From a virus: DNA of 64,000 nucleotides. The notes below the pieces were generated by a model. The model saw nothing but the letters and a program-made list of their open reading frames with translations. It ran no database searches and was not told where the DNA came from. Positions 13,604 through 40,848 of this stretch are shown here, piece after piece. A program made the translations under genes and the position numbers. The stretch lies in the IMG/VR virus record IMGVR_UViG_3300031760_000017; one strand, given 5' to 3'. Numbering within the stretch: position 1 is the first letter of the stretch; every line of letters starts with the position of its first letter.

Positions 13604-16600
13604 TCAATCTATATAACCAACCCATCCTCTATACGGACTACCATATGAATGTCCATCATACCATCTTCCAAGAGCATAACCCCATTCAAAATAAAGAATC
13701 CGAGGAGAACTTGAATCATTTGGATCTGCATGCTCGATCCATATATCTGTAACAATCTGTCCCCAAGAAACTTTTTGATTATCATAAGTAAAATAATCAG
13801 CTTCTAATTCTTCAGTTGAAAGATAATCTGATCTAATTTGTGAAGCAGTCAAATAATCTGATCTAATTTGTGAAGCAGTTAGATAATTTGCATTAAGAGT
13901 TTGAGTAGAAACATAATTTGCTTTAACTTGATTAAATTCTGCTTTATCAGCATATAATGTATCACATTTTATAATCATCTTATCAGTCAAACTTCCAGAA
14001 TAATAACTGTTGGTCATATCACTAGCCATAACAGTATTAGGATCTAACCAAGAGTCACCTGAGCCTCCTATAGTAAAACCATATCCATTTAAGGACTGTC
14101 CACTCATAACCTATCCATAAATTTTCCCAAAATAAGCATCTCCATTTGCGCTAATAGACCAAGAAGGACCAGATATACTACCCTCATAATCAAGAGAAAG
14201 ATTACCAGCTTTTAAATCATAAGTATTAATATTCCATCCGCCTATCTGTCCGGAGCTTGCATTTATCTCGCCTGATAAATTTACATTAGATGCTGTTAGA
14301 TTACCATTATTATCAACAGAAAATCTAGAACCAAGAGCAATTTCATCAGTTCCAATATAAACGCTTCTATTATTTCCTTTTGTTCCAAAAGAAATTGAAC
14401 TTAAATTAGCTGTAAAATCTCCTTTAATAGTCCAATGATTTCCAGATAAATACCCCATTTCTAAAGTCGCAGGTTTTATTGTTCCATTATCTGAATATCT
14501 ATTAGTAAATCTAAAAGAATTTCCTAAAGATAAGCCAAGAGGAGATAAATGAAAACCATCAGCTGTATTAGTTAATTCTGTTTTATTTCCACTATAAATA
14601 CGACTACGATCAGCTTCTAAAGTAATTTTTTGACTATTTAAAGAATTACTTTCAGTACCAATTAATTTAGTACCATTTATAGTCCAACCGCCAATTTGAC
14701 CAGATGTTGCGGTAATTTTCCCACTTAAATCTGTATTAGTAGCAACTAAATTTCCATTAGAATCTACTTTAAAACGTCCTGAACCATATCTTATTTCAGG
14801 TTTTGTTAAATCAATTAATAAACCTTGACCTTTTTCATTACTAGATGTATAATTAGATGGTAAGCCATTTTCATTATAATTTTTCCAAAAATTACCACTA
14901 TATAATAAAGCATGACTAGTACTTGGATCTATTACAATTTGCCCATTGTTAGCTTTTCCAAATAACGCAGAACCATTTTCACTATTTAAAAAGAAAGTTC
15001 TATCACCTTTATTATATCCTAATAATCCAATGTCAGGAGCAGTCTTATCTGGATTTTTAACTTCACCCATTAAAACTCCAGTAAAACTATTATCATTTTC
15101 TTTTTTACCTGCGCCCATTTGCGGAGCTAAGATATAACCACCCTTATCATCTAATTGAATACTGTTGCCATCCCAAGCGTTAATATGAGCTAATCCATAT
15201 TTATTTAATAAGAAATGAATAGGAATATGAATTCTAGCAATAACCTAATTATTATTAACACTTTTAACAGTACATACTAAAGCATTATTAACACACTAGC
15301 CGCTATACCTTGAAGCTGGTCGACATATGCATTGATTCTTTTGTAAATTTTTAGTATAATAACTCTAAGTTAATAACTCTAAATCATGAGAATCGTTATT
15401 ATAAGGAAACTAATCATACTAACCTACTTCAATCTAATGTGTCTGTATTATATTTATAACATCACCATTAACTGAATAACTAAAATTAACTGCATGACTT
15501 CCAGAAACTAATGATATATCTTCCCATTTATTATTTATTTTTTCTTTAATAATAAATTCAAAAGGTTTAGAATTGTCATATTGAGGAGATAAACCATCAG
15601 AACTATACATGACATATCTAAATCCAGTATAATCTTTTAATTCAATTCTATAATTATCATTTTTAACCCATGCAGTTGCAATAGGCAATGTACTATAATA
15701 TGAGTGCTGATTATAAGTTATTGTGCATTTTAGAATATCTGCTAATGTTTGCGTAAAAGTAGTGTCTATTGGATGTGCTGTTGTATTCACATATGAAATA
15801 AGTCCAGTATTAGCATTTACAATATTAAAAGAACTTTCATCAGTAAAATTTGTTTTATAAAAATTCTTTAACATGTTCCAAGTTACAGAACTAGGACTAG
15901 TTACACCATCTTTTGGATTTGCGGCAGTTGAAGTTCCTTCCCAAATCAAATCTCCACTTTGCCATAGCTGAGCTTTAAATAAGGTTTTTCCAACATTAAA
16001 TCCTGCAGTTTGCTACTATCCAGTTCCGCTTGCCGCAAAATTAATAATATAAGAATTAGAATCTCCTATTGCTGTTAAAGTAGGGTAAATAGGTAATATT
16101 TTTGCTGTACTATTTGGAACAATTTTCACAATATATTGGGTCCCATTTGTACCAGGTTCTCCCTATTTTACAAAAGTAAAGTTAGTTTTTGCAACTAAAT
16201 TAATCTACTTATAAGTTACAAATAATTCAATCTGATTATTTAATTTTTTTACATCATATTTTTGTGCAATATCATAAACTAAAGTATCTAAATTTGAATA
16301 ATATCTATAACCTTCCTATTCAACTGCCCATGTTTTATTGTTTTTGTCAACTAATAAAGTATTTTCAATAGGAATTTTCCAAGTAACTTGTCTTTTCTTT
16401 ATATCATCAGTAATATCATTCCCTAAATTATCATATACCTTAAAAGTTAAAGCTAAAATCTATTGCGGATCATCTAAACTTTTACTATTAGGCGCAATAC
16501 CATTCTAATTATATTTATATGATGCAGAGCCATTTTCAATAATTAGTGAATATATATTTTCCGCCTATAAAGAATTACTTAAAGTAATTGAAGCTGTTCC

Positions 16601-18295
16601 TATATAATTATGATTTAAATCTTCTACCGTACATTTAAATATAGCAAATCCATCTATTGCATTAACTTGTAAATCATAAATTTTATTTTTACTTACTCTT
16701 TGTGTATATTTAAAATTAGAAAGAGTAGTTTCATAATTATTTAGTTCTTGTTGTGCTTCATTTTTAAATCTAGTTCCAGCTTGAATACTATTTTTTAATG
16801 ACTGCAAAGCATTATAAGTAGTTGTATAGTTATTATTTAATTCAGTCGTTGTTTCTAAAGCTTCTAATCCACAGTTATTATTTTGCCAAGCCCAATAGTA
16901 ATTATAATTTTGTATATTTTCAACTCCATTTACTTTACAAGTTAATGTTGGATGTCCAATATCATAATAAAATTGAGTGCCACTATCTGACTATATTATA
17001 ATATCTGCCGCATTAGCTTGTAAATTTTGAATTGTGATTTCCTTAGAAATAACTGTATTATCATATAAAACCGCAACTTTTAATTTATTTTCTCTTGCAG
17101 TTGCATCTTCTCGATAAACTATATAAGTACTATCTCCAGGCACCCATTCTATTTGAGGAGCTTGAGTTGCAGTTCCAGGTGAAATAATATTTTTTTCATT
17201 TACACATTTCCAACCGCGTCCTAAATGTTGATTATAATACTAACTATTTGCAAAAATACCAACATTTTCTTTTCCCCAATAGAAAGATAAATTTTGAGAA
17301 TCTGATACTAATTTTCCTTTTATTCTTACCTGTGCGGTAACTATTAATTCTTCTTTTGGAGAAGGATTTGTAGCTTGTTTAAAGAAAATACCTTTTGGAG
17401 TATAAAATGAAATAGATATTCCATTATTTTCTTCATCGCTTTTTCTTATAGCACCTAAAATTTCAACAGAAGAAATAAAGATATTTACTCCATTATCTGT
17501 TGATCTTAAAGGATAATGCTAAGGTGTCCCGGATGCTGAATTAGGAAAATCCTAGCAAAAGATTTCAATAGAATCAATTCTAACAAAGTTTTCTCCATCT
17601 ATTTCAAAAATCTAATATTGTCTAGTATTATGTTCAAATCTATAAGGATTACCTGTCATATTATCTTCATCAAGCGTATAGCTTTTAATTATCTATTTAG
17701 AATTTCCATTAGATTCTAAATTAGAATTATCATTAAATACTAAATTAAAAGTTATACCATAATGACCTTGATATTGTTCCTATAATGGAATAGTATTTCT
17801 TATAGTCATTCCTGCAATTAAAGAAGATGCTTTTTTAATATATTGATTTAAAGCATCATTATCTAATTTTAGCGGTGATGAGCTAACTCCATATTTATAA
17901 ATAACATAACTATATTTCTTATATTTTGTAGCTAAATAATAAATGCCGCTTGTTGTAACGCAATTCTTACCTAATATATCATATGCCTACTATCCAACCG
18001 CTTCAGAAACATAGTTAATTCCAAGTTTCTAAGTTGTACCAAGAATAGTTTTATCTTTGCTCATATCATTTCCTGGAACTAAAATATAAACATATGCACC
18101 TTTAGAATAAGTAATATCTGCCGAACCCGCATACGCAAAAAAAGTTGTATCTTGATAACGACATTTATATTTTCCTATTGTCGCATCTTCACAAGAAATA
18201 ATTTGAGCTTGAATAGTTTTATCATATCCAGCTTTTTTTATTGAATTATTAGTTAATAATTCAATCGCGTCTAAAATTTTCTAATTAACGCCCAT
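13604..18295 (-). CDS. Giant tail-fibre or tail-associated protein, about 1,560 aa, TAG-recoded with about 40 in-frame TAGs
   Basis: The minus-strand ORFs 13604.., 14111.., 15434.. and 16565.. all share one frame and are separated only by TAG. The ATG at 18293-18295 has a GGAGATAAAAG SD. No TAA or TGA was found in the frame. Confidence 0.6.
13821..13940 (-). repeat. Tandem 30-nt coding repeat, about 4 copies, encoding an xYLTASQIRSD repeat
   Basis: Direct repeats of ataatctgatctaatttgtgaagcag. Confidence 0.7.
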
Positions 18296-18611: not shown

Positions 18612-21600
18612 TTATTTTCTTCTCATAGCACGTTGAGCCGCTAAATTAACTAAATCATTTAAAGCTTCTTCAATCTATTGTTTACTATTTACAGCAGGGA
18701 AAGATGCTGAAATCTGAACTTTTTGATCAATAACATCACTAAGAGTTGAAGCTGAATTTAAAGAAAATCTATCAGTAGAGATTTTCCCAATTTTATTTAA
18801 TAAAGATGTTCCTATATTTTTTGTAATAGATCTTAAAATAGAAACACTATTTAAAATATTTCTAGTATCTTCTGAATTTAAAACTAATTCTTTTTCATCC
18901 AATATTGCTAAACGACCTTGTTTTGAATTCCAACTTCCTGTATATCCACCTGTATCATATCTTTTTATTTTTCTATTATAAAGTCCAACAGGATCATTTA
19001 TATTCATATGAAGAACGTCATGATTATCTAAATGTCTAAGATCTCCAACTCTATTGCTATTATAATCATAGACTCCATTATCAGCTCCTCTTCCCCATCT
19101 ATAATGATTTTCTGAGCCATTAGGATAATATGTTTCAGATTCAGGCTCTTCATAAGAAACAGTATCTTGCATTCTGTTTAAAGCATCTTGATAGCGGTCA
19201 GCAGCAGACTACATTCTACTAGCATTAGCTTCTGCATTACTTGCTAAAGCATCTAAAGCCGCTTGAGCTTCATTACTATAATCCCAATCAGCATCCGCCA
19301 TTCGAATCCTCATATCTTCATAAGTCTGCGCAGTTGCCTAAGCTGATGCGGCAGCCTATTGCTAAGCTTGAACGAAATCATATAATTGAGTAACTGCATT
19401 TGCCGCAGCTGTATAAACAGAATCATAATCATAAACAAGAGCTTGAGCAGCATCTCTTAAATCTTGAATAGCAGATAATTCATCAGCCATTCTATTGATT
19501 AAATCATCATTAACTTCAATTAATCCAGTAAATTCATCTATTAAATTATCTACTCCATTTTGAACATCATTTAAATCTATACCAGCAGTATTAGCTAAAC
19601 TATCAAGTTCTTGCTAATAATTAAAAGTAGCCTCATGAATCTCTTCAAAAGCTTCTTGACAAGATGGTATAAAACCGCCCTATCCCGCAACTTTATCAGA
19701 CATCTATTGAATACCGCTATTCCATGCTGGAACTAAATCGCCCATTAGAATACCTTTTTCATCATCTGTCATCTTTTGATAATTTGCAACATCTATGTTA
19801 TAAATTGCGGCAATCTCATTAAAAGCAGATTCAGTTAGATTTTTTCTAATATCAGAATTTTGTTGAGCTTTATTATTAATATATTCTCCATATTGCTCTT
19901 TTAATAAAGCTAGCTATCTAACTCTTTCTTCTTCTGTTAAAGAAGTATCAGTAACTATATCTTTATATTTCTATTGGAAATCTCTCCAAGCAGAAAGCAT
20001 TTCCTATAAATTATTTTGATAACGCTATTTATCAAAATTATATAATTCATTTTGAGCACTAATTAATCCTTGTTCAGCATCAAAAATACCATTTTGATCA
20101 GCAACATATTGATAAGAATAGTTACCTTGTGAATCACGTTTTAATCTTAAAGAAGTTTTACTTGCTCTTATATCTTCTAAAGCAATTCGTGCTTGTTCAA
20201 TTTGAAGCATCTTCTACGCTCTATCTACATCATATTGAGTAATCTTCTATTTATTCTTTAAATTATCTAATTGCTCATCCATAACTTTCTTTAAAGCTTG
20301 TTGATGTTTCAATTGATTTGGATTATTTAATGATTTTTGGAACTTATTTTGTAAATCCTGAAGAGCAAAAGCAGCATTAATTGTATCTAAGTATTCATCC
20401 GCATTTTTATTCATTAAATCCCATTCATCACTTAAATAATCAGTACCTTTTCCGTCTGTAATTTTCTTATCTAGCTAATCAAAAATTTTATCAATAGCAT
20501 TACTGTATTTTTCACTGATTGTTTTTGCGGAAGTTTCTATTAAAGAATTGATTTCCTTAATAGCGTTTTTATAATTTTCTTCAAATTGTTTTGCCGCATT
20601 AGTATCTCCCGCTAATAAAGCTTGCTACCATTCTTGTTTCCAAAAAGCAATCTATTTTCTTAAAGCATCTATTTGATTATTTTGATTTTTTTCTAATTCA
20701 GCATAATAATTTTCCATAGCTTCATAATTTTCATCACCATAAAGCAATTTTAATAAATCCATATCATGCTAAATTAAATCATTAATAAAATCATAATCAT
20801 CTTGTTGTTTCTCAAATTGTTTAGAAATATCATCAATAGTATCTAAATAAGCTTTATCAATATCCGCAATTAAATCTTCAATATCCTACATTTGTTTCAT
20901 TAATTCGGATAAATCACTTTTTAAATCCGCCATAGCTTGTGCTTTATTATTACCATAAATTGCGGAAGTTCCTTTTTTATCTATATCTTCTATTTCTTTA
21001 CGAGTATTTAATAATTGCTATGTTAATTTTTGAACAGTACCTATTGAACCATTTATATTAAAGAAAGAATCTAAATCCATAACATTTTTAGTAGCATCTT
21101 TAAAAATCTTATCGAAATCAGTATCTTTCATAAAATCAGTTTTATTAATTACATTTCTTACAAACTAATTCCAATCTTTTGCAGCTTCGCCCATCTATAA
21201 TCGAATTTCAAGCTACATTCTAAATTTTTTAATATTAATTTCAATCTACTTTTGGGCAATCTATTCAATCTAATCTACTATATCTTCCATGCTATTTCTT
21301 AAAGAATCATAATCTTTAATTTTAGCTTGAGTATTTTTTAAATCTTCTTGAGCAGATTGCACAGCTTTATCATAAGCTGAAATTTGTTTATCTAATCCTT
21401 CTTTATAAGTTTTATCAGTAGAAGCATTATAAGATTCAATTAAACTATTCTATTCATTTATTAATCTATTAACCGCATCTTGTTTAGCTTGTAATATAGA
21501 CATATAATCATTTATATTTCCATATTCATCAAAAGTAACTCCTAATGAATTTAGAATTTGCTGTTGATTAGCTAAATCTTGTCTTTGAAGCTATTGCTTT

Positions 21601-24600
21601 TCTTTTAATTTTCTTTTTTGAGCTTCTAATATTGCGGTTTGTTTATTTAAATTATCAAGTAATTGTTTACCATATAATTTATCTTGAATTTTTTGAGTTC
21701 GCTCTAAATCACGATTAATTTTCTTTATTTCAATGTCAATATCGTGATATAAATCTTTCTCTTGCTCTATTGGCTTTTTAGTATTTTTAGTAGAAGTATT
21801 AGTATTATCTTTTGCAGTTTTATCTGCTGCTTTTTGAGCTTTTTCAGCCTCAGCTTTTCTCCTTGCTTGACCCTTTGCTCCAGCGCCATTAGCAGATTTT
21901 TTATATTTAAAACCACCACCAGAAGTTTTATGTGCGGAAACAACTTTTAAAGCAAATGCAGTATGCTATTTAGTTTCCGTATCATCCGCAGGAACTGTTT
22001 TATAACGAATAGTAGGCACTCTATATGTTACCTAACTTCCATCTATGGGGTTTACACCAGTAACTTCTCTATTTGTAACTTCAGCTTCTGCGCCAGTGTA
22101 CTGAACTGTATCTTGCGCAGTTGTTTTTTGCTAGATGATTTCAGCATCTACACCCATAGAAGCTAAATAATCTGTTGCTTGTTTTGCTGTCATATTGGCA
22201 GCATTTACCATATTACTTAATTCTTTTAAGAATCCTTCATTATCCAATGAAGCTCCGATTTTTAAATCCTATAAATTTTTACCCTAATAATATAATTCCA
22301 TTATATCATCAAAGTCTTTCTTAAAAGCTTCTGTATCTAAATGAATTTGGGTAGCAATATCTTGTCCAGCTAATTGCATTAATTGATCATAAGCTTCTAC
22401 ATTACCATCAATTGCCGCCTTCATTAATTTTAAATTCTCAACATTTGTTAAGAAATTATTAGATAATGACTAACCATCTAAATCAAGTAAATCAGCATAA
22501 GCATCTCTTAATCCAGAAATTGCCTATGATTGTTCTTGCCAAGAGCCACTTTGTAAAGCTCCTAGCCAAGTATCATAATTATCAACAACATCTTGAATAG
22601 CATTATCAAATCTTAAAATTGATTCAGCAAGTTCTTCCGCACCTTCACGATCCTATTTTAAAACTTTTGATAATTCTTCACTTTGCTATGATAAACTTTG
22701 AATATCTTTAGTAAGATTTGCATAAGCTGTCTCATCAACATCCGAATCTGTTGGAAACATAGCATCATGTAACTGATGAGCAAGTTTTTCTTCTTCCTAT
22801 TTTAACTAAGCAGTCCTATCACTTAAATCTTTAGTTTGATCACCTACTTTAGCAACAGCATCATAAATCTACTTTACTATACCTGGAAACTCCTAAAGCC
22901 ATTCTTTTGATTTTTGTTGCTTTTCAATAATAGCTGTCCATTCATTTATAATAGGCTAAGTGGCTCCATCTGTATCTTTTAAATATTCAATTTGTTTCTT
23001 TAATAAATCAAAATCAGCATGATTATTTTGAAGAGCTCTATTATCTAATTCATCATAATCATACTGTTTCTAAGATAATAATTGAACTCTATTTAATTCA
23101 GATTCAATCTAGAATAAAGTATTTTTAAATCCTTCTAATTTTAAATTATTAATAAGTGTATAGAACTATTCTGCATCTTCAGTCATTTTATATGACCCAT
23201 TAGCCATCATAGTAAAGAAAGATTGAATCTAAGGAGCTAAATCTCCAAATTCAGTTTTTGAAACGCTCTTTCCACTTCTAACTTGATCTTCAAGAGACTG
23301 ATAAAAAGCATAATTCTCTGCAGCGTCTCCCTGCATAGCAGAAATTTCTTTTATATTAGAAAAATCTGCATGTGAGATATTATCAACAACATTACCTAAA
23401 GTATCCCAGTTAGAAAATATTGATGGAGAAAGTTCAAAAGCTTTAAATAATTCCTCTAAATGTTGTTCATCTAATTCAGATAAATTTTTAATTATTTTAT
23501 CCGGAATTATTCCTGATGCTTTTTCTTGAATTTTATCAATAATTTTACCAATTTCATTATATTGATTATAAAGTTGAGACTATTCAGTAAGAAGATATGA
23601 ATCAGCTAATTCTTTTGCAGTTGTATCTCCTACAAATTCACCCTGCTATTCTAAAGCTGCTTGTAATTTTTGTCTTTGTTGTAAAAATTCTCCAGCATTT
23701 GTTACATTAGAAAAATCAAGGACGCCATGAGCTTCTTTTGATAATCCTATAAAAGCTGCTTGATTTTCATTAACATCTTTCGAAGCGTTGTCAAAAGCTT
23801 CCATCTATTCTGCTGAATCTGCAACCCATTGTGTTAAATCTTTATACCATTGAGATTGTCTCTATTGTTCGCTTAAAGTTTTGCTTAAATCTTCAACAGC
23901 TTTTTTAACTCTAGGATACATTATTAACAAGGACTATAAATTATAATCAACTTTATATTCAATAGTTCCATTATCTTGTTGGCGAAAACCATTTTCACTT
24001 AATATCTCTTTAGCTTCATCGCTCATTCTATTGCTACCAAAAGATAAAGCATAATCAATTTGATTGTCTTCACCAAGTGAACCTTTTACACCACGTTTTC
24101 CTTGAAGTTCAAAAGAGCTCCATAGGTTTTGTTTTGCTGCTTCATACTATTCTTTACTGGAATTATATTTTTTCTAAGCTTCTTCAGCTTTTAATTCTTT
24201 TAAAGTTTGAATTAAATTATCATAATTATTACGTAATCTATCTGCCGCATCGCCTTCAAGACCATATTGATTAATTAAATCTTCTATTCCTGATTTTAAA
24301 TCAGATCTTGTAATCTAGCCTTCTTTATATTTTTGATTTAGCTCTTCAATAGATTTATATAATTCTTGATTTCTACTTAATTGTTCTTGAAGTGTATTTG
24401 CTTCCTAAATAACTGATTCATTATGTTCAATTTGTGCTTTTCTAGCCTATTTACTTTTATTTATTAAAAAACCGAGTGCTGTTACAGCAGCTAATGCAGC
24501 TGTAATAAAAGCTCCTAATGGAGTAATTGTAATAACACTATTAAGAAATTGAATTTGAAAACCTGCTTCTGTTGCAGCAGCACCTATAGCACCAAATGAA

Positions 24601-27263
24601 ACGGCCTTAGCTCCATTAGAAGTAATAACAGCTGCCGCTTCTGCTGTACTCTTTCTAAATTGATAATTTAAAAGATTAGTTGCTTTTCCAACAGCCCCAA
24701 TTCCTTTAATTAACATTGGTAATGAAAAAGATAAATTTGTAACAATTTGAAGTATTCTTTGTCCAGTAGATAAATCCTGATTTTTCCAAACACTTCCTAA
24801 ATGTTGAATTTGTTGAATAGAAGACCCAATTCGAGCAAGACCTGCAGCAGCTTTTGCATATTCCTCAATTCTAACAGCTCTGTCTTTATTTGACATCTCC
24901 CCATTAAAATCGTTTTGTTTTGCATTCATTTGACCGCGCAATTTCTACAATTCAGGAACAATTTTTGGATCATTATAAACCTATTTAAAAATTTTTTCTA
25001 TTTTTGTTTTAATTTCATTACCACTAGTTTCTGTTATTTCTGCTAATTTATCAAAAAAATCTTTAAATTTTTGAAAAGTTTCTTCATTTACACTTTTAGA
25101 AAATCTTTTAGGTAAATCTTCATATAATTGACCAATCTCTTCAATAGCTTTTTGAGTTTCTTTAGAAAACTATTGATTACTAGTCATTTCATCAAAAACT
25201 TCTTTAAGATCTTTTGCTCCTAATCGTAAAGTAGTAAAAAAACTTCTTATGCCATCTTGCCCTACTTTATCAAATATATTTAAAAACTTTTCAGTTGATT
25301 GAGAAACAGACTCAGTTGATTCTTGAAATTCATCATATTCTTGCTAACATTTTTCTAGCATATTTAATATTTCATCAATTTTTTCAGGCTTTCCAACAAT
25401 ATTTTCTAATTTTGTCGTACCTAACTCTTGTCCTGAAATTCTATCTATTAACTATTCTAAAGGTTGTTTTTGTTTAACTAAAGTTTGAATCTAATTTCCA
25501 ATATTAGTAATATCATTTAATAATTTTTGTGCTCCTTGAAATTCTTCTGGAGACATCATTCTTGATAGTTCTAATAAATGTTCTCTATCTTTTAATAAGC
25601 TTTTACTTACTTCATCTAATTCAGGAATTCCTTGCCAATCTTTTGTTGCTTGTAAGGCATTATCAAATTCTCTAGCATTACTATTTGCAATCTCAAGGTT
25701 AGTAATAGTTGTATTTATTCCTTTAGCAATTTGTTCACTAAAAACAGCAACCCCAATAGCTCCAAGAGATTGTAATAATGCCTTACCTCCGCCTAAGCCA
25801 TCAATAAAGTTTGCAACAAAAACTGCAACACCCGATAATGCATCAGTTATACTCTTTATAGAATCAACATCAATTAAACTATCATATACATCTTCAACGG
25901 AAGCTTTTAATTGCTTTAAATGCGCGGCAGTTGAATCCATATATATATCTTGTTGCTTTTGTAAGGTACCTGCTGCATTTTGCGCTGTATTTAATGCTTC
26001 ATTATATTCTTCAAAATTATCAAATAAAGCAAGTAAATTATTATATTGTCTTTGACCAGCCATTGTTTGAGCTAAATAAATTTGCTGTTCACGAGTTAAA
26101 TCATCCCAACGACCGCCAATTTCTTCCATAACTTCGCCCATATCACGAAGATTTCCATTCATGTCAAGAACATTAAAACCAAGTTGTGCCATTTGACTAG
26201 AATATCTACCAAGAGTAACTCCATCTTCATCAATTCCAGCTTTAATATCACTAATACGAGCATAAACAGTTCTTAAAGCTGTACCAACACTCTAAGGAGC
26301 TTGTCTTGTTGCAGAAATAATAGTTGATAACTGTGCAGCTAATTGCTATTCACTAACACCCATTGTGGCGGCCGTACTTGCAACTTTACCCATACCTTTA
26401 CTTAATTCTTCAAGATCTGATGCGGTTGTTGCAGCAACAGCAGCTAATCTATCAATATATATCTAAGCCTAATCCGCATTAACCTTATAACCATTCCAAA
26501 CGGCAGTTAACTGTTCAGAAACGTCTGCTGTTGATTGATTTGTAACATTTGCTGTTTTTAATGTAATTGCGGTTCTAGCCTAAATTTCTTTATCTGATAA
26601 ACCCTGTTGAGCATAAATTAAAGCAGCATTAGTGTAATCTACTGTTGTAGTGCCTAGTTGTTTGGCTGCATTATTGGCTTGCTCTGCAAATCTTCCCATT
26701 TCATCAGCAGTCTTACTAGTAACGATTCTAATATCATTTAATGAAGTATCTAATGATTTAACATATCCAACTGCTTGTTGAATAGTACTAGTGAAACCAC
26801 GAAATACAGTATTAGCTAAATTATATTTTGCAACATTAACAAAAGTCTAAGCAAATTTATCAAGCACTTGATGAGTTTGCTTTAATTCTGCATTAACACT
26901 TAATACATGAGACGATAAATTTCTAAAAGCATTCTCACCAACAGCACCGCTCTTAGAAAAACTTTGATAGACTTTTTCTATTGAAGTTCCAGATTCATTT
27001 AATGACTTATTAAAACTTTCAACATTTGTAGTATTTAATTTTGCATTAAAAGCAGCTCTTAATGCTTTCTATACATTTCCAGCCTATTTCTGAATTGCTA
27101 TTAAATCGGTTTTAGCTGTATCAAAATCAGAATTATTTATTTTCATCATATCTTTTATAGTTAAATTTTGAATCTCTTTTAAAGATTTTTTTAACTAATT
27201 TAAACTCTGTTTTTGAATGTCAAAACCAATAGAATAGATAATATCTCCACCCTTTTTTGCCAT
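18612..27263 (-). CDS. Tape-measure protein, TP901-like core. Giant at about 2,883 aa, TAG-recoded with about 90 in-frame TAGs
   Basis: Track ORFs 18675.., 20025.., 24447.. and 25491.. are all in one frame. The ATG at 27261-27263 has a GGAGATAAAAGG SD. The TAA stop is at 18612-18614. The core motif is LGFNVLDMNGNLRDMGEVMEEIGGRWDDLTREQQIYLAQTMAGQRQ. Confidence 0.7.
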
Positions 27264-28210: not shown

Positions 28211-28276
28211 TTAAAATTATTTATATAAGCACATTGAAAACTAAATATTATATTTTATTAAAAAAGGAGAAAAAAG

Positions 28277-29851
28277 ATGATTTAGAAAATTGTAACTACT
28301 GTAATTCCAATTTTAGTACCTATTGTAATAATCGCTCTCTTATGCCTTGCAATTACCTTAATTGGTAAAGCTATGTATAAGAAATCTCCGCCAAATATGG
28401 CAATGGTTGTAACTGGACCTTTTGGAAATAAAACAATTATTGGTAAAGGTTGTTTTGTAATTCCTATTCTTGAAAGAGTAGACTTCCTTTCTCTTGAAAA
28501 TATGCAATCAGACTTTACATCTAAAGATGACATTCCTACAAAAGATGCCATCAATATTTTAGTAGATGCAGTTGCTAACTTTGCAATTTCAACTGATCCG
28601 AAGACTCTTCCAAAGGCTGCTGCAAAATTCTTAGGTAAGAAACCAAAGCAAATTGAGGAAATTGTAAGACCGGTTCTTGAAGGTAATATCCGAGAAATTA
28701 TTTCTCAAACAACTTTAAAAGAACTTATTCAAGGTGATAAAAAGAAACTTGCAGAAAGAATTATTGAAAATGTTACTCCCAATCTTCAAGATATGGGTCT
28801 TGAATTAACAACTTTTAATATTCAGAATTTCAAAGATAAAAATGGAGTAATTGATAACTTAGGTCTTCAAAACACAGTCCAAATTAGTAAAGATGCTGCT
28901 ATTTCTAAAGCAAAAGCTGAACAGGAAATTGCAGTTGCGGAAGCTAATGCGCGAAAAGCTGCTAATGAAGCTCAAATTGCTGCGGAAACTGAAATTGCAG
29001 AAAGAGAAAATAAGCTTACAATTAAAAGATCTGAATTAAAAAAGCAGGAAGATATTAAGAAAGCAGAAGCTGATGCTGCTTATGAAATTCAGCAACAGGA
29101 ACAGCAAAAAATAATCGAAATTGCAACTGCCGATGCAAAACTTGCAAGACAAGAAAAAGAAATTGATTTGCAAGAACGTGAAGTTAGTATTAGAGAGCGT
29201 AAACTTGAAGCTGAAGTTAAGAAAACGGCAGAAGCTAGAAAATACGCTGCTCAACAGGAATCTGATGCAAATCTTTATGCAACTCAAAAGAGTTCTGAAG
29301 CTGATTTATTTGAAAGACAAAAGAAAGCTGAAGCTGAACAGTATGAAGCAGAACGACGTGCGGAGGCTCAAAAAGCTAAAGCTGAGGCTGAAAAATTTGC
29401 AAAAATTCAGGAAGCAGAAGCTATTAAAGAAACTGGTACTGCGGAAGCTGAAGCTATTAAAGCTAAAGGTACCGCAGAAGCTGAGGCTATTAGAGCTAAG
29501 GCGACCGCTGAAGCTGAAGGTTTGTTAAAGAAAGCTGAAGCTATGGAAAGATATGGTGAAGCAGCTCGTGAACAGCAAAAACTTGACGCGTTAAAGATTT
29601 ACTTTGAACAGCTACCCGCAATTGCTGAAGCTATCGGTTCAGGCTATGCAAATGTTGAAAAGATGGTTATGTTCGGAGATGATTCTTCAAAATTAAGTGG
29701 TAATATCATTAATAATATTACTCAAGTTTCTGAGGGTCTTAATGAATCACTTGGTATTGATTTAAAATCTTTAATGTCTGCTTTTATCGGTGGAAAGATT
29801 GTTGATGCAAATCATACTGAAGTAACTGAAGTAACTAAAGAAGAAGAATAA
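28277..29851 (+). CDS. Flotillin (FloT/YuaG-like SPFH protein). Codon 3 is a TAG
   Basis: The strong SD AAAAAGGAG precedes the ATG at 28277. The reading is MI*K, then a TM helix, then the SPFH domain, then EA-rich flotillin repeats. It is in frame with track ORF 28373..29851, whose own Met has no SD. Confidence 0.7.
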
Positions 29852-29860
29852 TAATTTATG

Positions 29861-29913
29861 ACAAGGAGAATATAAAAATTCTCCTTGTTTTTTTTATAAA
29901 TTTTTATTATAAT
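29861..29913 (+). terminator. Composite terminator and promoter cassette
   Basis: Hairpin ACAAGGAGAAT...ATTCTCCTTGT and T-run. TTGTTT at 29885-29890 is exactly 17 bp from TATAAT at 29908-29913. Confidence 0.6.
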
Positions 29914-29945
29914 ATATTTATAAAAATGAAAAGGAAATAAAAAAT

Positions 29946-30371
29946 ATGTTATCAGATAAAGCAATGTTAGAACTATGTCGATTGTACTATGATGAAGAGA
30001 CTTTCGAACATGTAAAAAGAGTCGCTGAATATGCTAAGGATATTTATAAACTTTATGATTATTATAAAGCAGGTGAGGAAAGATCTATTTATCATTTAGC
30101 CTTAGCTCACGACTTATATGAAGATACCGATATTTCACAAAATACTTGGTTTGATAATAATTTTGAAGCCAATCTTCAATTATTAACGAAAGACGAAGAT
30201 ATATCATACAACGATTATATTGCTAAAATTCGCAAAGAAGCAGTGATACCTACTTATAAACCTGCTTATATTGTAAAATTAGCAGACATGAAAGATCATC
30301 TTTCTCAAACTGAAACTTTAACAGAAGAACTTAAAAATAAATATATTTCTGCTATGAAATATTTACTTTAA
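29946..30371 (+). CDS. HD-domain phosphohydrolase
   Basis: H...HD motif (FEHVKRV...LAHDLYED). Confidence 0.6.
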   Translation: MLSDKAMLELCRLYYDEETFEHVKRVAEYAKDIYKLYDYYKAGEERSIYHLALAHDLYEDTDISQNTWFDNNFEANLQLLTKDEDISYNDYIAKIRKEAVIPTYKPAYIVKLADMKDHLSQTETLTEELKNKYISAMKYLL

Positions 30372-30386
30372 AAAAGGAAAATAAAA

Positions 30387-30527
30387 ATGGGAATACTTGA
30401 TGTTATTCTAATTATAAATATTGTACTTAAACTTTTAAATTTAATTACCTGGAGCTGGTGGGCAGTCCTCTGGCCGCTTTGGGTAATTTTAATAATTGCT
30501 TGTCTTCTTATTTTTGGAGATGATTAA
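30387..30527 (+). CDS. Small hydrophobic peptide, 46 aa, paralog 1
   Basis: Single predicted TM helix. Shares the ...NWSW..LWPLW... motif with the next ORF. Confidence 0.4.
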   Translation: MGILDVILIINIVLKLLNLITWSWWAVLWPLWVILIIACLLIFGDD

Positions 30528-30553
30528 TATTATAAATAAAGGAGAAATAAAAA

Positions 30554-30700
30554 ATGCTTGAAACGATTTTAATTGTAAATATTATACTTAAATTTTTTAA
30601 CTTAATTAATTGGAGTTGGAGCGCAACTCTTTGGCCGCTATGGGCGGAATTAATAATTATAGCTATTTTTTGGCTCAGTGGAAATCTTGATAAAATTTAA
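30554..30700 (+). CDS. Small hydrophobic peptide, 48 aa, paralog 2
   Basis: Tandem duplicate of the previous peptide. GGAGAAATAA SD. Confidence 0.4.
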   Translation: MLETILIVNIILKFFNLINWSWSATLWPLWAELIIIAIFWLSGNLDKI

Positions 30701-30773
30701 AATTAATTGATTTTTTATAAAATTTTTAATATAATTATAATATAAGTTATTAAAGAAAAAAGAGGTAAAAAAT

Positions 30774-32741
30774 ATGGGAAGATATGATAATGAAAATTGG
30801 GACACTTCGTCTCAGATGAATAGACAGCGAGACTTGGTTCTTTCCACAAATGAATTTTGTTTCTTGCAGTCTAAAACAAATGGTGCAATTAAAACATATA
30901 CTGGTCCTATTACCATGACAATTTCCGCTCAGGAATCTCTTGTTGTCTTTAATTCTAAGACAAAGAAATTTGAGGAAACTCAGGACTTTGAAAAGGCTAA
31001 ACAGCTCTTTATTTCTGCTCCTGAAGGATGGTATGTAGTTCTAAAGAATCCTGCGGTAGACAATTCTCATCCGGAAGCCGCAAAAGCTGTCAATAGTCCT
31101 AATCTTGAAATTGGTCGCAAGATTAATATTGGTGGACCTGTTTCCTTCTCACTGTTTCCTGGACAGATGACAAGAGTTATCAGAGGACATAGACTTCGTT
31201 CTAACCAGTATCTTCTTGCTAGAGTTTATGATGCGGACGCTGCACGTAAAGGTATTACAACAGCAACTATTGTTGATACAGAAGGCAAGGAAGTTACAGC
31301 AAAACCCGAGGAATATTTCGTTGGTCAAATGATTGTTATTAAAGGAACTGAAGTTTCTTTCTACATCCCGCCAACAGGAATCGAAGTTATTCCTATCGGA
31401 AATAGTAATGAATATGTCCGTGATGCAGTTACTCTTGAAAGACTTGAATATGCAATTCTGAAAGATGAAGATGGCGAAAAAAGATATATTCATGGTCCTG
31501 CGGTGGTGTTCCCGAAACCAACTGAAACATTTGTTTCAGCTCCTAAGGGTGGACTTATTTTCCGTGCTCTTGAACTTTCACCAATTAGCGGAATTTATGT
31601 AAAAGTAATTGCCGCATACGATGAAACAAAGAATGGTAAGAAAGTTCATCATCCAATTGGAGAAGAGCTTTTTATCACAGGAAAAGACCAGATGATTTAT
31701 TATCCACGTCCGGAACATGCTATGATTCAGTATGATGGTAAGTATATGCACCATGCTATCGCAATTCCAGAAGGCGAAGGTCGTTATATTCTTAATAGAC
31801 TTAGTGGAGAAATTAAGACTATTCGCGGTCCTCAGATGTATCTACCAGACCCGCGTTATGAAGTAGTTGTTAAAAGAAAACTTACTCCTAAAGAATGCGA
31901 TTTGATGTATCCTGGTAATATGGAAGTTCTGAAATATAATGGGAACCTTACAGAAAAAGCTGTTGAAAAGATGGCTAGTAGAGGTCTTACAGGTTCTGCC
32001 GTAACAGATGCGCTTAATAATGTATATTCAACTTCTAATCAGGAAGCAACTCTTGCTATTTTTGAAGCCAATGCAAACATTTCTCGCGGCGTAAGTTATA
32101 CAAAACCGCGCACAATTACACTTGATACTAAGTACGAAGGTGTTGTTGGAATTAACGTTTGGGGCGGATATGCTATTAATGTAGTATCTAAAGCTGGTAA
32201 GAGAGATGTTGTAGTTGGTCCAACTACTCGACTTCTTGATTATGATGAAACTCTTGAAGCAGTTGAACTTTCAGGGGGTACTCCAAAGAGTTCTAAGCCA
32301 ACTGTAAGAACAGCATTTTTACAGATTGAAAATAATAGAGTTTCTGATATTATTAATGTACAGACTTCAGACTCTGTTGCTGTTGAAATTCATCTTAGCT
32401 ATTGTGTAAGTTTCTTAAAAGAATATAAAGATTCTTGGTTTGCTATTAATAATTATGTAAAATATCTGTGTGATAATATGCGTTCTCTTGTTAAGAGAGA
32501 AGTAAGAAAATATTCTATTAAAGATTTTTATGCAAAATCTACTGAAATTATTAGAAATATTGTTCTTGATACTGAAACAGAAAAAGAACTTTTTGGTAGA
32601 TTCTTTTCTGCAAACGGCATGCTTGTAAATGATGTTGACATTATCAGAGTTACTGTTGAAAGAAACTATGAGCGTCTTCTTGAAAATCATCAGGCTGAGC
32701 TTATTCAGAAGAGTATTGATTTAGCTGATGCAGAAACATAG
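30774..32741 (+). CDS. Major vault protein (MVP)-like protein: repeat domains plus an SPFH-like shoulder. It ends in TAG directly abutting the next in-frame ATG
   Basis: 655 aa. Repeat and shoulder-like regions. The stop codon TAG at 32739-32741 is immediately followed in frame by ORF 32742.. with no SD. Confidence 0.45.
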   Translation: MGRYDNENWDTSSQMNRQRDLVLSTNEFCFLQSKTNGAIKTYTGPITMTISAQESLVVFNSKTKKFEETQDFEKAKQLFISAPEGWYVVLKNPAVDNSHPEAAKAVNSPNLEIGRKINIGGPVSFSLFPGQMTRVIRGHRLRSNQYLLARVYDADAARKGITTATIVDTEGKEVTAKPEEYFVGQMIVIKGTEVSFYIPPTGIEVIPIGNSNEYVRDAVTLERLEYAILKDEDGEKRYIHGPAVVFPKPTETFVSAPKGGLIFRALELSPISGIYVKVIAAYDETKNGKKVHHPIGEELFITGKDQMIYYPRPEHAMIQYDGKYMHHAIAIPEGEGRYILNRLSGEIKTIRGPQMYLPDPRYEVVVKRKLTPKECDLMYPGNMEVLKYNGNLTEKAVEKMASRGLTGSAVTDALNNVYSTSNQEATLAIFEANANISRGVSYTKPRTITLDTKYEGVVGINVWGGYAINVVSKAGKRDVVVGPTTRLLDYDETLEAVELSGGTPKSSKPTVRTAFLQIENNRVSDIINVQTSDSVAVEIHLSYCVSFLKEYKDSWFAINNYVKYLCDNMRSLVKREVRKYSIKDFYAKSTEIIRNIVLDTETEKELFGRFFSANGMLVNDVDIIRVTVERNYERLLENHQAELIQKSIDLADAET

Positions 32742-33263
32742 ATGAAAGCTGTAAAAGACCTTGCAGAAATGAAGCGACAGAAAGCTGATATTGAAAATCA
32801 GGCTGAGCTTTATAGAATTCAGCGTCAGAAAGAGGAAGCTGAAGCTGAAATGCAGTATAAAGAAGCTATTCAGGTTAAAAAGCGTGAAGCTGAAGCTGCA
32901 GCAGCCCAGGCTAAGAAAGACCTTCAGGAAGTTCTTAATGCAATCCAGACCGCTGAAGTTGCAAGAGAAAAAGAGAAGCATGCGGCAGAAGTTGCTCATG
33001 CAAAGGAACTTGCGGAAATTGAGAAAGCTAAGCAGGAAGCTTATGCTGCAACCGTAAAAGAAATTATGAGTTCTATCTCTCCTGACCTTGTTGCCGCAAT
33101 CAGCGCTAGCTCGAAAGCAGACCTTCTTAAAGAAGGTATGAAGAATATGTCTCCTTATGCAATCGCTAATGGAGAATCTGTTGCAGATACTGTTAACAAG
33201 CTTATGAGAGGAACTTCTCTTGAAGATGTCCTTGATAAAGCTTCTCCAAAAATTAATTTCTAA
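32742..33263 (+). CDS. MVP cap-helix-like coiled-coil domain. Probably the C-terminal part of an 829-aa read-through fusion with 30774..32741
   Basis: EA-rich coiled coil followed by ...SPDLVAAISASSKADLLKEGMKNMSPYAIANGESVADTVNKLMRG. Compare human MVP ...[46 protein letters not shown]. Confidence 0.45.
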   Translation: MKAVKDLAEMKRQKADIENQAELYRIQRQKEEAEAEMQYKEAIQVKKREAEAAAAQAKKDLQEVLNAIQTAEVAREKEKHAAEVAHAKELAEIEKAKQEAYAATVKEIMSSISPDLVAAISASSKADLLKEGMKNMSPYAIANGESVADTVNKLMRGTSLEDVLDKASPKINF

Positions 33264-33276
33264 TTTTTGACTTTTC

Positions 33277-33335
33277 CTTACAAGGAAGGAATTAAAAATT
33301 CCTTCCTTGTTTTTTTATAAAAATTATTATATAAT
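33277..33335 (+). terminator. Composite terminator and promoter cassette
   Basis: Hairpin ACAAGGAAGGAAT...ATTCCTTCCTTGT. TTGTTT is exactly 17 bp from TATAAT. Confidence 0.6.
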
Positions 33336-33368
33336 ATTTATGTAATAAAAAAGGAGAAAATAAAAAAT

Positions 33369-33539
33369 ATGGAAATAAAAGTTCAAGTTCATTATCCTTG
33401 GGCGGATGAGCCAGATTGGTGCAAGGTTCAAATTCCTGAAAATATAAGTGAAAGTGAAATTGATAAAATTGCTTATGAATTTGTTTTAGATTTGTTATTT
33501 GACCAAGGAATTAGTTGGGATTATGAAATAATTAATTAA
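33369..33539 (+). CDS. Small hypothetical protein, 56 aa
   Basis: ATG preceded by an AAAAGGAGAAAA SD. Confidence 0.4.
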   Translation: MEIKVQVHYPWADEPDWCKVQIPENISESEIDKIAYEFVLDLLFDQGISWDYEIIN

Positions 33540-33549
33540 GGAGAAAAAA

Positions 33550-33762
33550 ATGAGAGACCCAAATAGACTTTATAAATTTTATGAAAATTTAAGAGATATA
33601 CATATGACTTATTTTCCAGATTGGAGATTTGGACAACTTATACTTAATTTCTCTGGATGGTATTACAATAAATATAAAAAAGATATTTTTTATATTGAAG
33701 ACGATACAATGATAGAAGTATTTACAGAATATCTTAATTATATAAGAAATAGTATTTTTTAA
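33550..33762 (+). CDS. Hypothetical protein, 70 aa
   Basis: ORF with GGAGAAAAAA SD. Confidence 0.4.
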   Translation: MRDPNRLYKFYENLRDIHMTYFPDWRFGQLILNFSGWYYNKYKKDIFYIEDDTMIEVFTEYLNYIRNSIF

Positions 33763-33778
33763 AAGGAGATGATAAATA

Positions 33779-35017
33779 ATGCTTAATAAAAACAATGAAA
33801 GAGAACTTGCTTATGTGGTTATTGTTGATGCAGTAACTCCAATTAAAGGTTATGATAGAGTAGAGCTTGCTCATGTGGGCGGATGGACCGTTGTAGTTGG
33901 AAAAGGCGAGTTCCATGCGGGCGACCCCGCAATTTATTTTGAAATTGATTCTCAGCTTCCTGAGGTAGAGCCATTTACTAATATGGAATTTCTTGCTAAG
34001 AAACATTATAAAATTAAAACACAGAAAATGTGTAAATCTATTTCTCAGGGGCTTCTAATGTCTGCCGCAAATTTTGGATGGAAAAAATCTGCTGAAAATG
34101 CAGGTGACTTTCCATACATCAAGGATAATGAAGGTATTTGTCATTTTACAAATGATGAGTCTCGTTTCCTTACAAAGCAGCTTAATGTAACATACGCCGT
34201 TCCAGAAGATAATGCCCGCAAAGCAAATTCTGTTGATAAATATAAGAAAATGGCACAGCGCAATGGTAAGCTTTTCTCTCATCAGCCGTTTAAATGGCTT
34301 ATGAAAAAAGAGTGGGGAAGAAAACTTCTTTTCACATTCTTTGGTAGCAAAAAGGATAAGACAGGCTGGCCCGCATGGGTAAAAAAGACAGATGAGGAAA
34401 GAATCGAAAATCTTCCATATCTGTTTGAAGATAAGTCTCCTTGGATTGCTACTGAGAAAATTGATGGGACTAGCACAACTTTCACCCTGAAACGCGGAAA
34501 AGGACTCTTTAAGAAAGATGAATTTTATATTTGTTCCCGTAACGTATGTTTCGATAGACCTAATAAAAATTGTTTCTATGAAACAAATGTTTATATTGAA
34601 ATGGCTGAAAAATATAATATTTATAATAAGATGAAGCATCTTCTTGAAACAAAATATAAAGATTGTGAATGGATTACAATTCAGGGTGAGACTTATGGAA
34701 CTGGAATTCAGAAACGTGATTACCATATGACAGAACATAATTTTATGGCTTTTAACCTGATTTCCTCTAAAAATGGAAGAGAAAATTCACTTATTATGAA
34801 AGATATTCTTGAGAAGGAAAATGGTATTCCTTGTGTTCCTATTGTAGCTGACTCTTATACACTTCCGGGCACTCTTGAAGAGCTTCGTGAGTTTGTAGAT
34901 AGTGATACTTCCGTTATTGACGGAGAAATTAGAGAAGGAATTGTATTCCGTTCCACTGACGGTTCTCGTTCTTTTAAATGTGTTTCTCCAACATATCTTA
35001 TGAAATATCATCAGTAA
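33779..35017 (+). CDS. ATP-dependent RNA ligase (Rnl-family nucleotidyltransferase)
   Basis: KxDG adenylation motif (EKIDGTS). 412 aa. Sits in a cassette with the kinase and phosphatase genes. Confidence 0.6.
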   Translation: MLNKNNERELAYVVIVDAVTPIKGYDRVELAHVGGWTVVVGKGEFHAGDPAIYFEIDSQLPEVEPFTNMEFLAKKHYKIKTQKMCKSISQGLLMSAANFGWKKSAENAGDFPYIKDNEGICHFTNDESRFLTKQLNVTYAVPEDNARKANSVDKYKKMAQRNGKLFSHQPFKWLMKKEWGRKLLFTFFGSKKDKTGWPAWVKKTDEERIENLPYLFEDKSPWIATEKIDGTSTTFTLKRGKGLFKKDEFYICSRNVCFDRPNKNCFYETNVYIEMAEKYNIYNKMKHLLETKYKDCEWITIQGETYGTGIQKRDYHMTEHNFMAFNLISSKNGRENSLIMKDILEKENGIPCVPIVADSYTLPGTLEELREFVDSDTSVIDGEIREGIVFRSTDGSRSFKCVSPTYLMKYHQ

Positions 35018-35074
35018 ATTTTAAAGGTGAGATAAAAAATCTCACCTTGTTTTTTTTATTATTTTTTGTTATAA
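35018..35074 (+). terminator. Composite terminator and promoter cassette
   Basis: Hairpin AAGGTGAGAT...ATCTCACCTT. TTGTTT is exactly 17 bp from TGTTATAAT. Confidence 0.6.
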
Positions 35075-35110
35075 TATATATAATGAAAAATAAAGAAAGG
35101 ATATAAAAAT

Positions 35111-35365
35111 ATGACGCTTAAAGAATGGCTTAAAAAAATTGATTTAGTAATAGACGTAAAAATTTGGGGAAAAGATGATGAGATACCTCTCTTTGAAGGC
35201 GCAGCTTTTGATATTCCTTGGACTATTATTGATTTTTCAATAGGCAGAATGGAGAATAGCACAGAAGAACCTATTTATATTTGCACTTATAAAAATAAAA
35301 ATAATGTGGTACTTTCAATAATTGTTATTAATGTGATAGAAAAAGAGGAGGATTTTCCATTTTGA
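35111..35365 (+). CDS. Hypothetical protein, 84 aa
   Basis: ORF with AAAGGATATAAAAAT ahead of the ATG. Confidence 0.4.
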   Translation: MTLKEWLKKIDLVIDVKIWGKDDEIPLFEGAAFDIPWTIIDFSIGRMENSTEEPIYICTYKNKNNVVLSIIVINVIEKEEDFPF

Positions 35366-40826: not shown

Positions 40827-40848
40827 AATTTAATAGGAGAAAAAATTA

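Follow-up and report, generated by a model that had tools for sequence, protein, structure and literature searches.

We analyzed a 64,000-nucleotide stretch of viral DNA (IMG/VR record IMGVR_UViG_3300031760_000017), referred to in full as the window, for the major vault protein (MVP) homologue encoded on its plus strand. At this locus, a first open reading frame (ORF) starts with the ATG at 30774 and runs for 655 codons up to a TAG at 32739-32741. A second ORF begins with the very next codon, an ATG at 32742-32744 in the same frame, and ends after 173 codons with a TAA at 33261-33263. Read together, the two give 829 codons with a single in-frame TAG. No GGAG/GAGG-type site was found in the 15 nt preceding the second ATG (GCTGATGCAGAAACA). 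This arrangement had been pointed out in a preliminary description of the sequence, which took the TAG for a programmed read-through signal between two isoforms, and the arrangement itself was borne out by the sequence. As detailed below, 30774..33263 very probably represents one MVP-homologue gene of a TAG-decoding phage, in which codon 656 was until recently CAG and the ATG is internal. The phage is a tailed one of roughly 140 kb, probably from an animal gut or rumen and probably infecting Clostridia. The features of the locus are given in Table 1.

Table 1. Features of the MVP locus and of its surroundings in the window
Feature	Position	Strand	Basis or remark
Last four tRNA genes (Gln-UUG, Gly, Arg, Cys) of a 24-gene array	396..1395	+	ARAGORN, Rfam
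Ro60/TROVE-vWA-like RNA-binding protein gene	1491..3014	+	Pfam DUF2828 + DUF7788; PHROG 850 'RNA-binding protein'
Flotillin/SPFH gene, 524 aa, N-terminal membrane helix, TAG at codon 3	28277..29851	+	0.9 kb upstream of MVP
Promoter-like site, sigma-70-type, TTGATT-17 nt-TATAAT	30707..30735	+	Consensus match only; putative function
Ribosome-binding site AAGAGGT	30760..30766	+	GAGG at 30762-30765, 8 nt 5' of ATG 30774
MVP-homologue gene, one unit, 829 codons	30774..33263	+	TAG codon 656 read as sense; TAA stop at 33261-33263
N-terminal beta-rich repeat region, aa ~18-520	30825..32333	+	Vault_3 hit, strand-rich model, Foldseek
Pfam Vault_3, aa 476-517	32199-32324	+	31.7 bits vs cut-off 28.8
MVP shoulder (SPFH-like), aa 521-627	32334..32654	+	PF11978, E 5.3e-23, 81.7 bits vs cut-off 25
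Cap-helix, aa 630-766, one continuous predicted alpha-helix including codon 656	32661..33071	+	Model; PDB alignments
In-frame TAG, codon 656, decoded as sense, most likely Gln	32739..32741	+	Private allele derived from CAG
C-terminal short helices, aa 770-823, positional equivalent of the MVP cap-ring	33081..33242	+	Model, low to moderate confidence
Intrinsic-terminator-like hairpin, 14-bp stem followed by a T run	33280..33310	+	17 nt past the TAA

The signals around the locus argue for a single gene, since a promoter-like site, a Shine-Dalgarno (SD) sequence and a terminator-like hairpin bracket the fused frame and the second ORF has no SD of its own. No terminator-like site was found at the junction of the two ORFs. 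By our own estimate, the chance of finding a 173-codon open frame straight after a stop in DNA of 30% G+C is ~0.92^173, or ~5e-7. Furthermore, the ratio of nonsynonymous to synonymous substitution rates (dN/dS) of these 173 codons was 0.06-0.08 in comparison with the closest relatives, L001 and L003. The 655-aa truncated product has no record in the gene-position index.

Sequence comparisons and structure prediction both indicate that the fused 829-aa product is a full-length MVP homologue: the shoulder domain, the N-terminal repeats and the cap-helix with the C-terminal region are collinear with MVP. A phmmer search of all PDB sequences returned MVP chains only (E ~1e-13), and the alignment of query residues 322-776 to residues 331-810 of rat MVP runs through codon 656. 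Similarly, a profile of 96 sequences matched only MVP chains in the PDB (E 4e-33) and reached MVP residue 823. These alignments place aa 630-766 on the cap-helix of rat and human MVP. Pfam detected one repeat only, and a second repeat gave a weak match in the profile search. No PHROGs family was found for the MVP homologue.

An AlphaFold2 model was built on P0001, a relative with 98% identity. It displayed strand-rich repeats across the N-terminal 520 residues with a helical insert at around aa 372-432, and the predicted local distance difference test score (pLDDT) was ~90 over the last repeat and the shoulder and low at aa 207-269 and 416-450. When this model was compared to the PDB with Foldseek, the top 12 places were taken by vault MVP chains of rat, human and rabbit, all of full length (E 6e-25 to 7e-21), with alignments of 850-967 columns. 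The R1-R7 fragment of murine MVP came next (E 2.6e-8), followed by prohibitin, flotillin and HflK/C, which matched the shoulder and the start of the helix (E 1e-7 to 1e-4). These results are in good agreement with three elements of the preliminary description. The MVP-like architecture with repeats and an SPFH-like shoulder was supported by Pfam MVP_shoulder and Vault_3, by the PDB sequence matches and by Foldseek. The assignment of a cap-helix and a cap-ring-like region to the second ORF was supported by the helix predicted at aa 630-766 and by the PDB alignments across codon 656. Finally, Pfam, the PDB searches and AlphaFold/Foldseek agreed on an 829-aa fused MVP-like protein that needs the TAG to be decoded. 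The TAG-terminated product would end 26 residues into the predicted cap-helix; in published vault structures, it is the cap-helix that bundles the MVP chains at the cap.

We then considered how TAG is used in the rest of the genome. Counting ORFs of at least 100 codons in the window (30% G+C), coverage rose from 63% with the standard code to 90% when TAG was read as sense. The number of ORFs stayed nearly constant (70 and 75, respectively) while their summed length grew by half, and reading TGA as sense brought no comparable gain. On the minus strand, the tape-measure protein (18612..27263) became a protein of 2883 aa with 71 in-frame TAGs and 13604..18295 one of 1563 aa with 26. Further in-frame TAGs were found in the genes for a lysin (14), two tail-region proteins (11 and 15) and RecJ (8). 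Of 41 genes in all, 17 contained between 1 and 71 in-frame TAGs. The genome thus reads TAG as sense in many genes. The genes fell into two classes: in 17 of them TAG made up 24-58% of the Gln-type codons, and 21 had no TAG at all, among them the genes for gyrase, ligases, helicase and primase, the RNA-repair genes and a Ro60-like gene. MVP (1 TAG versus 27 CAA/CAG) and the neighboring flotillin (1 versus 29) belong to the TAG-avoiding class, and yet each has one TAG. Where one of the two, the window or its closest relative L001, has TAG and the other a sense codon, glutamine was enriched 14-fold and glutamate 3.5-fold, with nothing else notable. TAG is therefore most likely reassigned to glutamine (genetic code 15), as judged from these exchanges, and the in-frame TAG pattern, the suppressor tRNA described below and the glutamine enrichment match the published pattern of code-15 phages.

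A search with ARAGORN and Rfam found only four tRNAs within the 64-kb window, none of them a suppressor. We could extend the window upstream through a contig that encodes an identical copy of one of its proteins (507 aa). This contig, L052 (ENA ERZ27256908, k141_3321089, 84,156 nt), shares 13,014 nt with the window at 100% identity and continues it into an array of 24 tRNA genes (L052:1035-9905). There, a tRNA with anticodon CUA, tRNA(CUA), is located at L052:3536-3609, ~4.9 kb upstream of window position 1 (ARAGORN; Rfam tRNA 62.8 bits). Suppressor CUA tRNAs were also found within 10 kb downstream of MVP in three more distant relatives (L027, L048 and L051). A sub-threshold tRNA-like match of 25.6 bits lies at L052:8836-8897, corresponding to window 326-387. 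No Rfam family was matched by the 480 nt that separate tRNA-Gln from tRNA-Gly (window 469-948), and across the window and the 10-kb array region Rfam detected tRNAs only, with no Y RNA and no vault RNA.

To place codon 656 in the gene family, we compared the DNA of 56 related loci, of which 49 came from IMG/VR and the others from ENA, Logan, NCBI and JGI (Joint Genome Institute) assemblies; the alignment at codon 656 comprised 52 sequences, namely the window and L001-L051. When the fused sequence was used as a protein query, more than 6500 matches were obtained, and the best 120 of these were all uninterrupted proteins of 811-835 aa with 76-98% identity. The seven closest relatives (L001, L003 and L135-L139; ~98% protein identity) all have CAG at codon 656 and not a single TAG anywhere in the MVP gene; at the nucleotide level, L001 and L003 are ~91-92% identical to the window gene. 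Scanning with a degenerate junction pattern recovered two loci, both with CAG. A stop at codon 656 was present in none of the 56 related loci. Among the aligned relatives, this codon was CGT, AAG, AAA, CAA, AGA, CAG, CGC, TAT, CAT, AAT, AAC or GAA, so that residue 656 is R, K, Q, H, Y, N or E in the more distant orthologues, and the following codon was ATG in 22 of the 52 sequences and encoded Val, Ala, Leu or others in the rest. As seven relatives carry CAG and no locus has a stop, the TAG is private to the window genome and derived from CAG. On the aligned sequences, then, it is a private CAG-to-TAG transition, which would be silent if TAG is read as Gln, and the ATG behind it is an ordinary internal methionine. 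Downstream of the TAG, only two substitutions are unique to the window genome, and both are conservative (V740 and D783). A three-taxon count had suggested extra nonsynonymous change after the TAG in the lineage of the window genome; this was rejected, as most of the differences are polymorphisms shared with other relatives. In L020, L028, L044 and L047, which apparently use the standard code, the MVP gene reaches a TAG at codons 831-838, its normal C-terminal end. Within one gene family, TAG thus ends translation in some phages and is read as sense in others.

The conservation of the junction also bears on whether the locus could hold two cistrons, one for an MVP body of 655 aa and one for a helical protein of 173 aa, linked by termination-reinitiation coupling at TAGATG. 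Indeed, a stop abutting an ATG is the classic layout of translational coupling, and the second ORF has no SD of its own. However, the product of every related locus is one polypeptide, the helix predicted around codon 656 is continuous, and the ATG is not conserved, which makes two separate proteins extremely improbable.

Likewise, the relatives speak to the preliminary description's central proposal, a gene-specific programmed read-through. Conservation of the stop is what would define such a signal, and this stop is absent from all 56 related loci; moreover, TAG is sense in many genes and a tRNA(CUA) is encoded on the same contig. The proposal was thus not upheld. A search of related phages for an uninterrupted orthologue found the gene uninterrupted everywhere, which also counts against programmed read-through. 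The designed early and late isoforms that had been suggested fare no better, given that the TAG is private and that 7 of 7 near-identical relatives have CAG. In a related form, the TAG could be a selected translational gate, at which host RF1 would release a truncated MVP early in infection and the full-length protein would follow as suppressor tRNA accumulates. Recoded phages are thought to delay late proteins by means of in-frame stops, in line with the model of an early standard and a late recoded phase (bioRxiv 10.1101/2021.08.26.457843). The MVP gene has a host-type promoter-like site and sits in an otherwise TAG-free block, and the TAG at codon 3 of the neighboring flotillin gene is kept in four relatives, so that gating by a single TAG may exist in this region. 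In addition, the TAG falls just after the shoulder, and the truncated product would, according to the model, be a defined body without the oligomerizing helix. Against this, no stop occurs at or near the site in any of the 56 loci, the CAG-bearing relatives lack TAG throughout the gene, the residue is variable, and the next codon is ATG in fewer than half of the aligned sequences, although a selected device should recur in relatives. We therefore consider a selected gate to be quite unlikely.

The TAG could also be devoid of decoding significance, as a recent nonsense mutation in a decaying or defective copy or as a sequencing or assembly error. The allele is known from one contig, the gene belongs to a class that avoids TAG, and CAG to TAG is one transition. 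However, this genome decodes many TAGs in essential genes and has a tRNA(CUA), and the TAG of MVP would be read through whenever those are. Furthermore, the 173 downstream codons contain neither a frameshift nor a further stop, their unique substitutions are limited to the two conservative ones, and their dN/dS is low (see above). A meaningless TAG is, in our view, very unlikely.

We thus return to a single MVP gene with a decoded TAG at codon 656, and several points weigh against this reading as well. First, the MVP gene belongs to the TAG-avoiding class and an internal TAG is found in none of the 56 related loci; the TAG is therefore atypical here and may be mildly deleterious rather than neutral. 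Second, the TAG allele is supported by one metagenome assembly (ERZ27256908, contig k141_3321089). Third, Gln is only the most likely residue to be inserted at the TAG, as deduced from the exchanges, and Glu is enriched at these too, 3.5-fold in comparison with L001 and 5.8-fold in comparison with the more distant L002. Fourth, the model is that of P0001 and not of the window protein, its mean pLDDT is 68 and its predicted template modeling (TM) score (pTM) 0.45, and its low TM-scores to MVP chains (0.21-0.29) reflect an elongated, multidomain chain that is flexibly arranged and was modeled as a monomer. Finally, the assembly of a cage, the timing of expression and a role in RNA handling are suggested by homology and by the neighboring genes, and we found no experiment on any bacterial or phage MVP homologue in the literature.

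Taking the single decoded gene as the basis, we propose the following sequence of events. The phage tRNA with anticodon CUA would decode TAG as sense, most likely as glutamine, and a single C-to-T change in a recent ancestor would have turned CAG into TAG at codon 656, silently if Gln is inserted. The host-type promoter would drive MVP together with the TAG-free early/middle genes. By analogy with MVP and the related SPFH proteins, the homologue may self-assemble early or mid-infection, its cap-helix and the lateral contacts of its repeats joining the chains into a large, hollow homo-oligomer, dome- or cage-like, in the infected cell. Such an assembly could serve RNA protection or repair, or membrane-associated compartmentation, during infection; it is the neighboring genes (RNA ligase, polynucleotide-kinase-like P-loop kinase, phosphoesterases, Ro60-like protein, tRNA array and flotillin) that suggest an RNA or membrane role. 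If the TAG were met before suppression is effective, the 655-aa product would be released and would probably be unable to assemble. This truncation would be a side effect of a private mutation and not a conserved device, and the single TAG in the MVP gene appears to be incidental.

The MVP gene is embedded in a near-TAG-free block (27464-36667). A phosphoesterase, flotillin and an HD-like protein are encoded there, together with MVP, an RNA ligase, a KTI12/AAA_33-type kinase and another phosphoesterase. Among 51 phage loci, considered up to a distance of 10 kb from MVP, 38 had the kinase, 39 the second phosphoesterase, 30 the RNA ligase and 15 flotillin. The flotillin gene opens with ATG ATT TAG (TAG at 28283-28285) behind a strong SD (AAAGGAG), and its membrane helix follows the TAG. 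With the standard code, only a helix-less form starting at ATG 28373, which lacks an SD, is predicted. The TAG at codon 3 is kept in L001, L003, L004 and L036 and absent from more distant relatives. Judging from this pattern, the flotillin TAG is a better candidate than the MVP TAG for a conserved single-TAG translational gate.

A second link concerns the Ro60-like gene, which follows the tRNA array. The 29-nt promoter-like motif of MVP has one further copy in the window, with 1 mismatch, at 1398-1426, 5' of the Ro60-like gene; these 2 copies in 64 kb compare with 0 in 100 shuffles. For the Ro60-like protein, neither the sequence search nor the profile search of the PDB gave a match; only the fold comparison did. 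With an AlphaFold model of pLDDT 76, the best full-length matches were Rsr of Deinococcus radiodurans (2nvo; E 3.9e-7) and human Ro60 (E 2-7e-4), at TM-scores of ~0.3, and vWA domains ranked after the Ro60 structures. In 12 related loci, a homologue of this gene was found upstream of MVP at a distance of no more than 10 kb. In L072-L074 the distance is ~0.4 kb (with Pfam confirmation for L073), and in L051 the order is tRNA array, Ro60-like gene, flotillin, MVP. A full-text literature search on DUF2828 brought nothing useful. No TEP1 or PARP4 orthologue was identified, although no search aimed at PARP was made. Among the sampled neighbors of five chromosomal bacterial MVP loci, there was no conserved partner and none of the phage-type partners. 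In the eukaryotic vault, which is composed of MVP, TEP1, PARP4 and vault RNA, it is the TROVE-vWA module of TEP1 that binds the RNA. The link between MVP and a Ro60-like protein is a new lead, absent from the 2023 preprint on phage MVPs. One may imagine a vault-like ribonucleoprotein (RNP) in which MVP would form the shell, the Ro60-like protein would bring in tRNA-like or damaged RNAs, flotillin would anchor the particle at the membrane and the RNA ligase, kinase and phosphoesterases encoded nearby would repair tRNAs cut by anticodon nucleases of the host. We regard this as an unlikely proposition; if true, the particle would be the prokaryotic-virus counterpart of the eukaryotic vault, or a relative of its ancestor, and a function open to testing could be assigned to the vault, namely to protect or repair RNA during conflict.

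Other genes of the window also stand out in their use of TAG. In a tyrosine-recombinase (integrase-like) gene on the minus strand (7690-8703), half of the Gln-type codons are in-frame TAGs, of which there are 10. The reverse is reported for the integrases of the recoded Garnet and Topaz prophages, which avoid TAG; the window gene is flanked by tail-region genes and a CotH-like gene and thus is possibly not a lysogeny integrase. The gene for the CotH kinase-like protein (8913-10181, minus strand; Pfam E 5.9e-28) contains no TAG, and the tail and integrase-like genes beside it are TAG-rich. The window also has four homing-endonuclease genes, one HNH and three GIY-YIG (40059-40856, 42763-43452, 49147-50091 and 50902-51528), all of them TAG-rich, with 4-9 TAGs each (24-50% of the Gln-type codons). 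They are inserted among the TAG-free gyrase and ligase genes, with an 8-nt overlap between the HNH gene and the start of gyrB.

MVP homologues had been called very rare outside eukaryotes and unexpected in a phage, and neither statement can be maintained. We found 233 loci in genomes of bacterial and archaeal species and 49 phage loci in IMG/VR. Among 1.84 billion representatives at 50% identity, 1220 clusters, which may include eukaryotic MVPs, matched at E <= 0.001 and 597 at E <= 1e-30. The JGI already labels members of the family "major vault protein." Plesiocystis, Enhygromyxa and Saprospira, all in culture, encode homologues with 41-45% identity, as do many metagenome-assembled genomes (MAGs) of Cytophagales and other bacteria. 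Homologues with 45-84% identity lie on contigs of 105-176 kb that are probably phage genomes and were binned with Clostridia, Lachnospiraceae, Erysipelotrichaceae and rumen MAGs. In INPHARED, searched with both DNA and protein, only three huge-phage records of 462-735 kb (LR756501, LR756503 and LR756500), with MVP homologues at ~42% identity, and no close relative were found. The homologue in LR756501.1 (735,411 bp; L053:6007-8436) is an uninterrupted ORF of 809 aa in the standard code, and its closest database relatives are on contigs of up to 736 kb. Since several relatives apparently use the standard code, MVP is not tied to recoding. In BFVD, the 802-aa protein A0A3G5A4K1 of Harvfovirus sp., annotated as 'prohibitin domain-containing,' aligned over its full length with the MVP model (E 2e-10) and, on this structural match, may be an unrecognized MVP homologue of a eukaryotic giant virus.

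Phage MVPs had in fact been reported before. The 2023 preprint described "the first viral MVPs" in the gut phages ctOa11 and ct2Ri15, for which TEP1 and vPARP gave no match (bioRxiv 10.1101/2023.11.10.566534). Independently of MVP, ctOa11 (147,880 bp) was described as TAG-recoded and as carrying tRNA-SUP-CTA in a paper that also predicted Eubacteriales hosts for the related phAss-1 (PMC10607447). Both the phage MVP homologue and TAG recoding are thus known, and the window adds one more example. Nevertheless, the case has practical consequences. Annotation with the standard code splits the gene into a truncated "MVP" and an orphan helical ORF and loses about a quarter of the window to fragmented ORFs, so that translation table 15 should be used. 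The data also support the view that large phages of the gut and rumen associated with Firmicutes, and huge phages too, commonly carry full-length MVP homologues and that MVP is not peculiar to eukaryotes. A phage system with its short cycle would be a tractable place to study vault function. What could matter most is that genes for a Ro60-like protein, RNA-repair enzymes and flotillin, as well as a tRNA array, recur in linkage with MVP.

Compared to eukaryotic MVP (rat, human and rabbit; PDB 4V60, 7PKZ and 9BW5, among others), the phage protein has a collinear architecture and a similar length (829 versus 861-893 aa): beta repeats at the N-terminus are followed by an SPFH-like shoulder and a helix of ~137 residues, and the C-terminal region is short. 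It differs in sequence (~15-18% identity in fold alignments), in the helical insert of the phage model and in the location of its gene in the early/middle region of a phage; moreover, self-assembly into a 39-fold half-vault or a 78-mer cage is here postulated from homology. The SPFH cage proteins (flotillin, prohibitin, HflK/C and stomatin) resemble it in the shoulder and the start of the helix, and a true flotillin is encoded nearby (Table 1). Unlike the MVP homologue, however, they lack the repeat region of ~500 aa and are membrane-anchored, whereas the model of the MVP homologue has no predicted membrane segment.

By their descriptions, ctOa11 (BK048656) and ct2Ri15 (BK042946; Santos et al. 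2023) are, like the window phage, gut tailed phages with predicted hosts of Firmicutes type and with MVP homologues of ~810 aa encoded outside the structural module, and ctOa11 shares the TAG recoding. The Clostridium sp. SUG910 contig of the same preprint was recovered here as L058 (55% identity). In contrast to the two phages reported there, our set comprises the 49 IMG/VR loci, the three huge-phage records and a recurrent Ro60-like neighbor, and an in-frame TAG inside the MVP gene was not described there. With respect to programmed read-through, as in Q-beta A1 or the UAG of retroviral gag-pol, the locus has in common an in-frame UAG dividing a shorter from a C-terminally extended product. 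However, the stop is not conserved in any related locus, and decoding occurs in many genes by means of a dedicated suppressor tRNA rather than by context-dependent near-cognate read-through. A conserved stimulatory element downstream was neither sought nor seen. The closest parallel as to coding is provided by the known code-15 phages (crAss-like, Lak, the 'gemstone' clades and the phAss-1 group), in which TAG is likewise concentrated in tail, lysis and some DNA-metabolism genes, replication and early genes are TAG-free, a tRNA(CUA) is phage-encoded and the predicted hosts use the standard code. Nothing essential differs from these phages. What is unusual here are the TAG-rich integrase-like gene, the four TAG-rich homing-endonuclease genes and the two genes of the TAG-avoiding class that carry exactly one TAG each.

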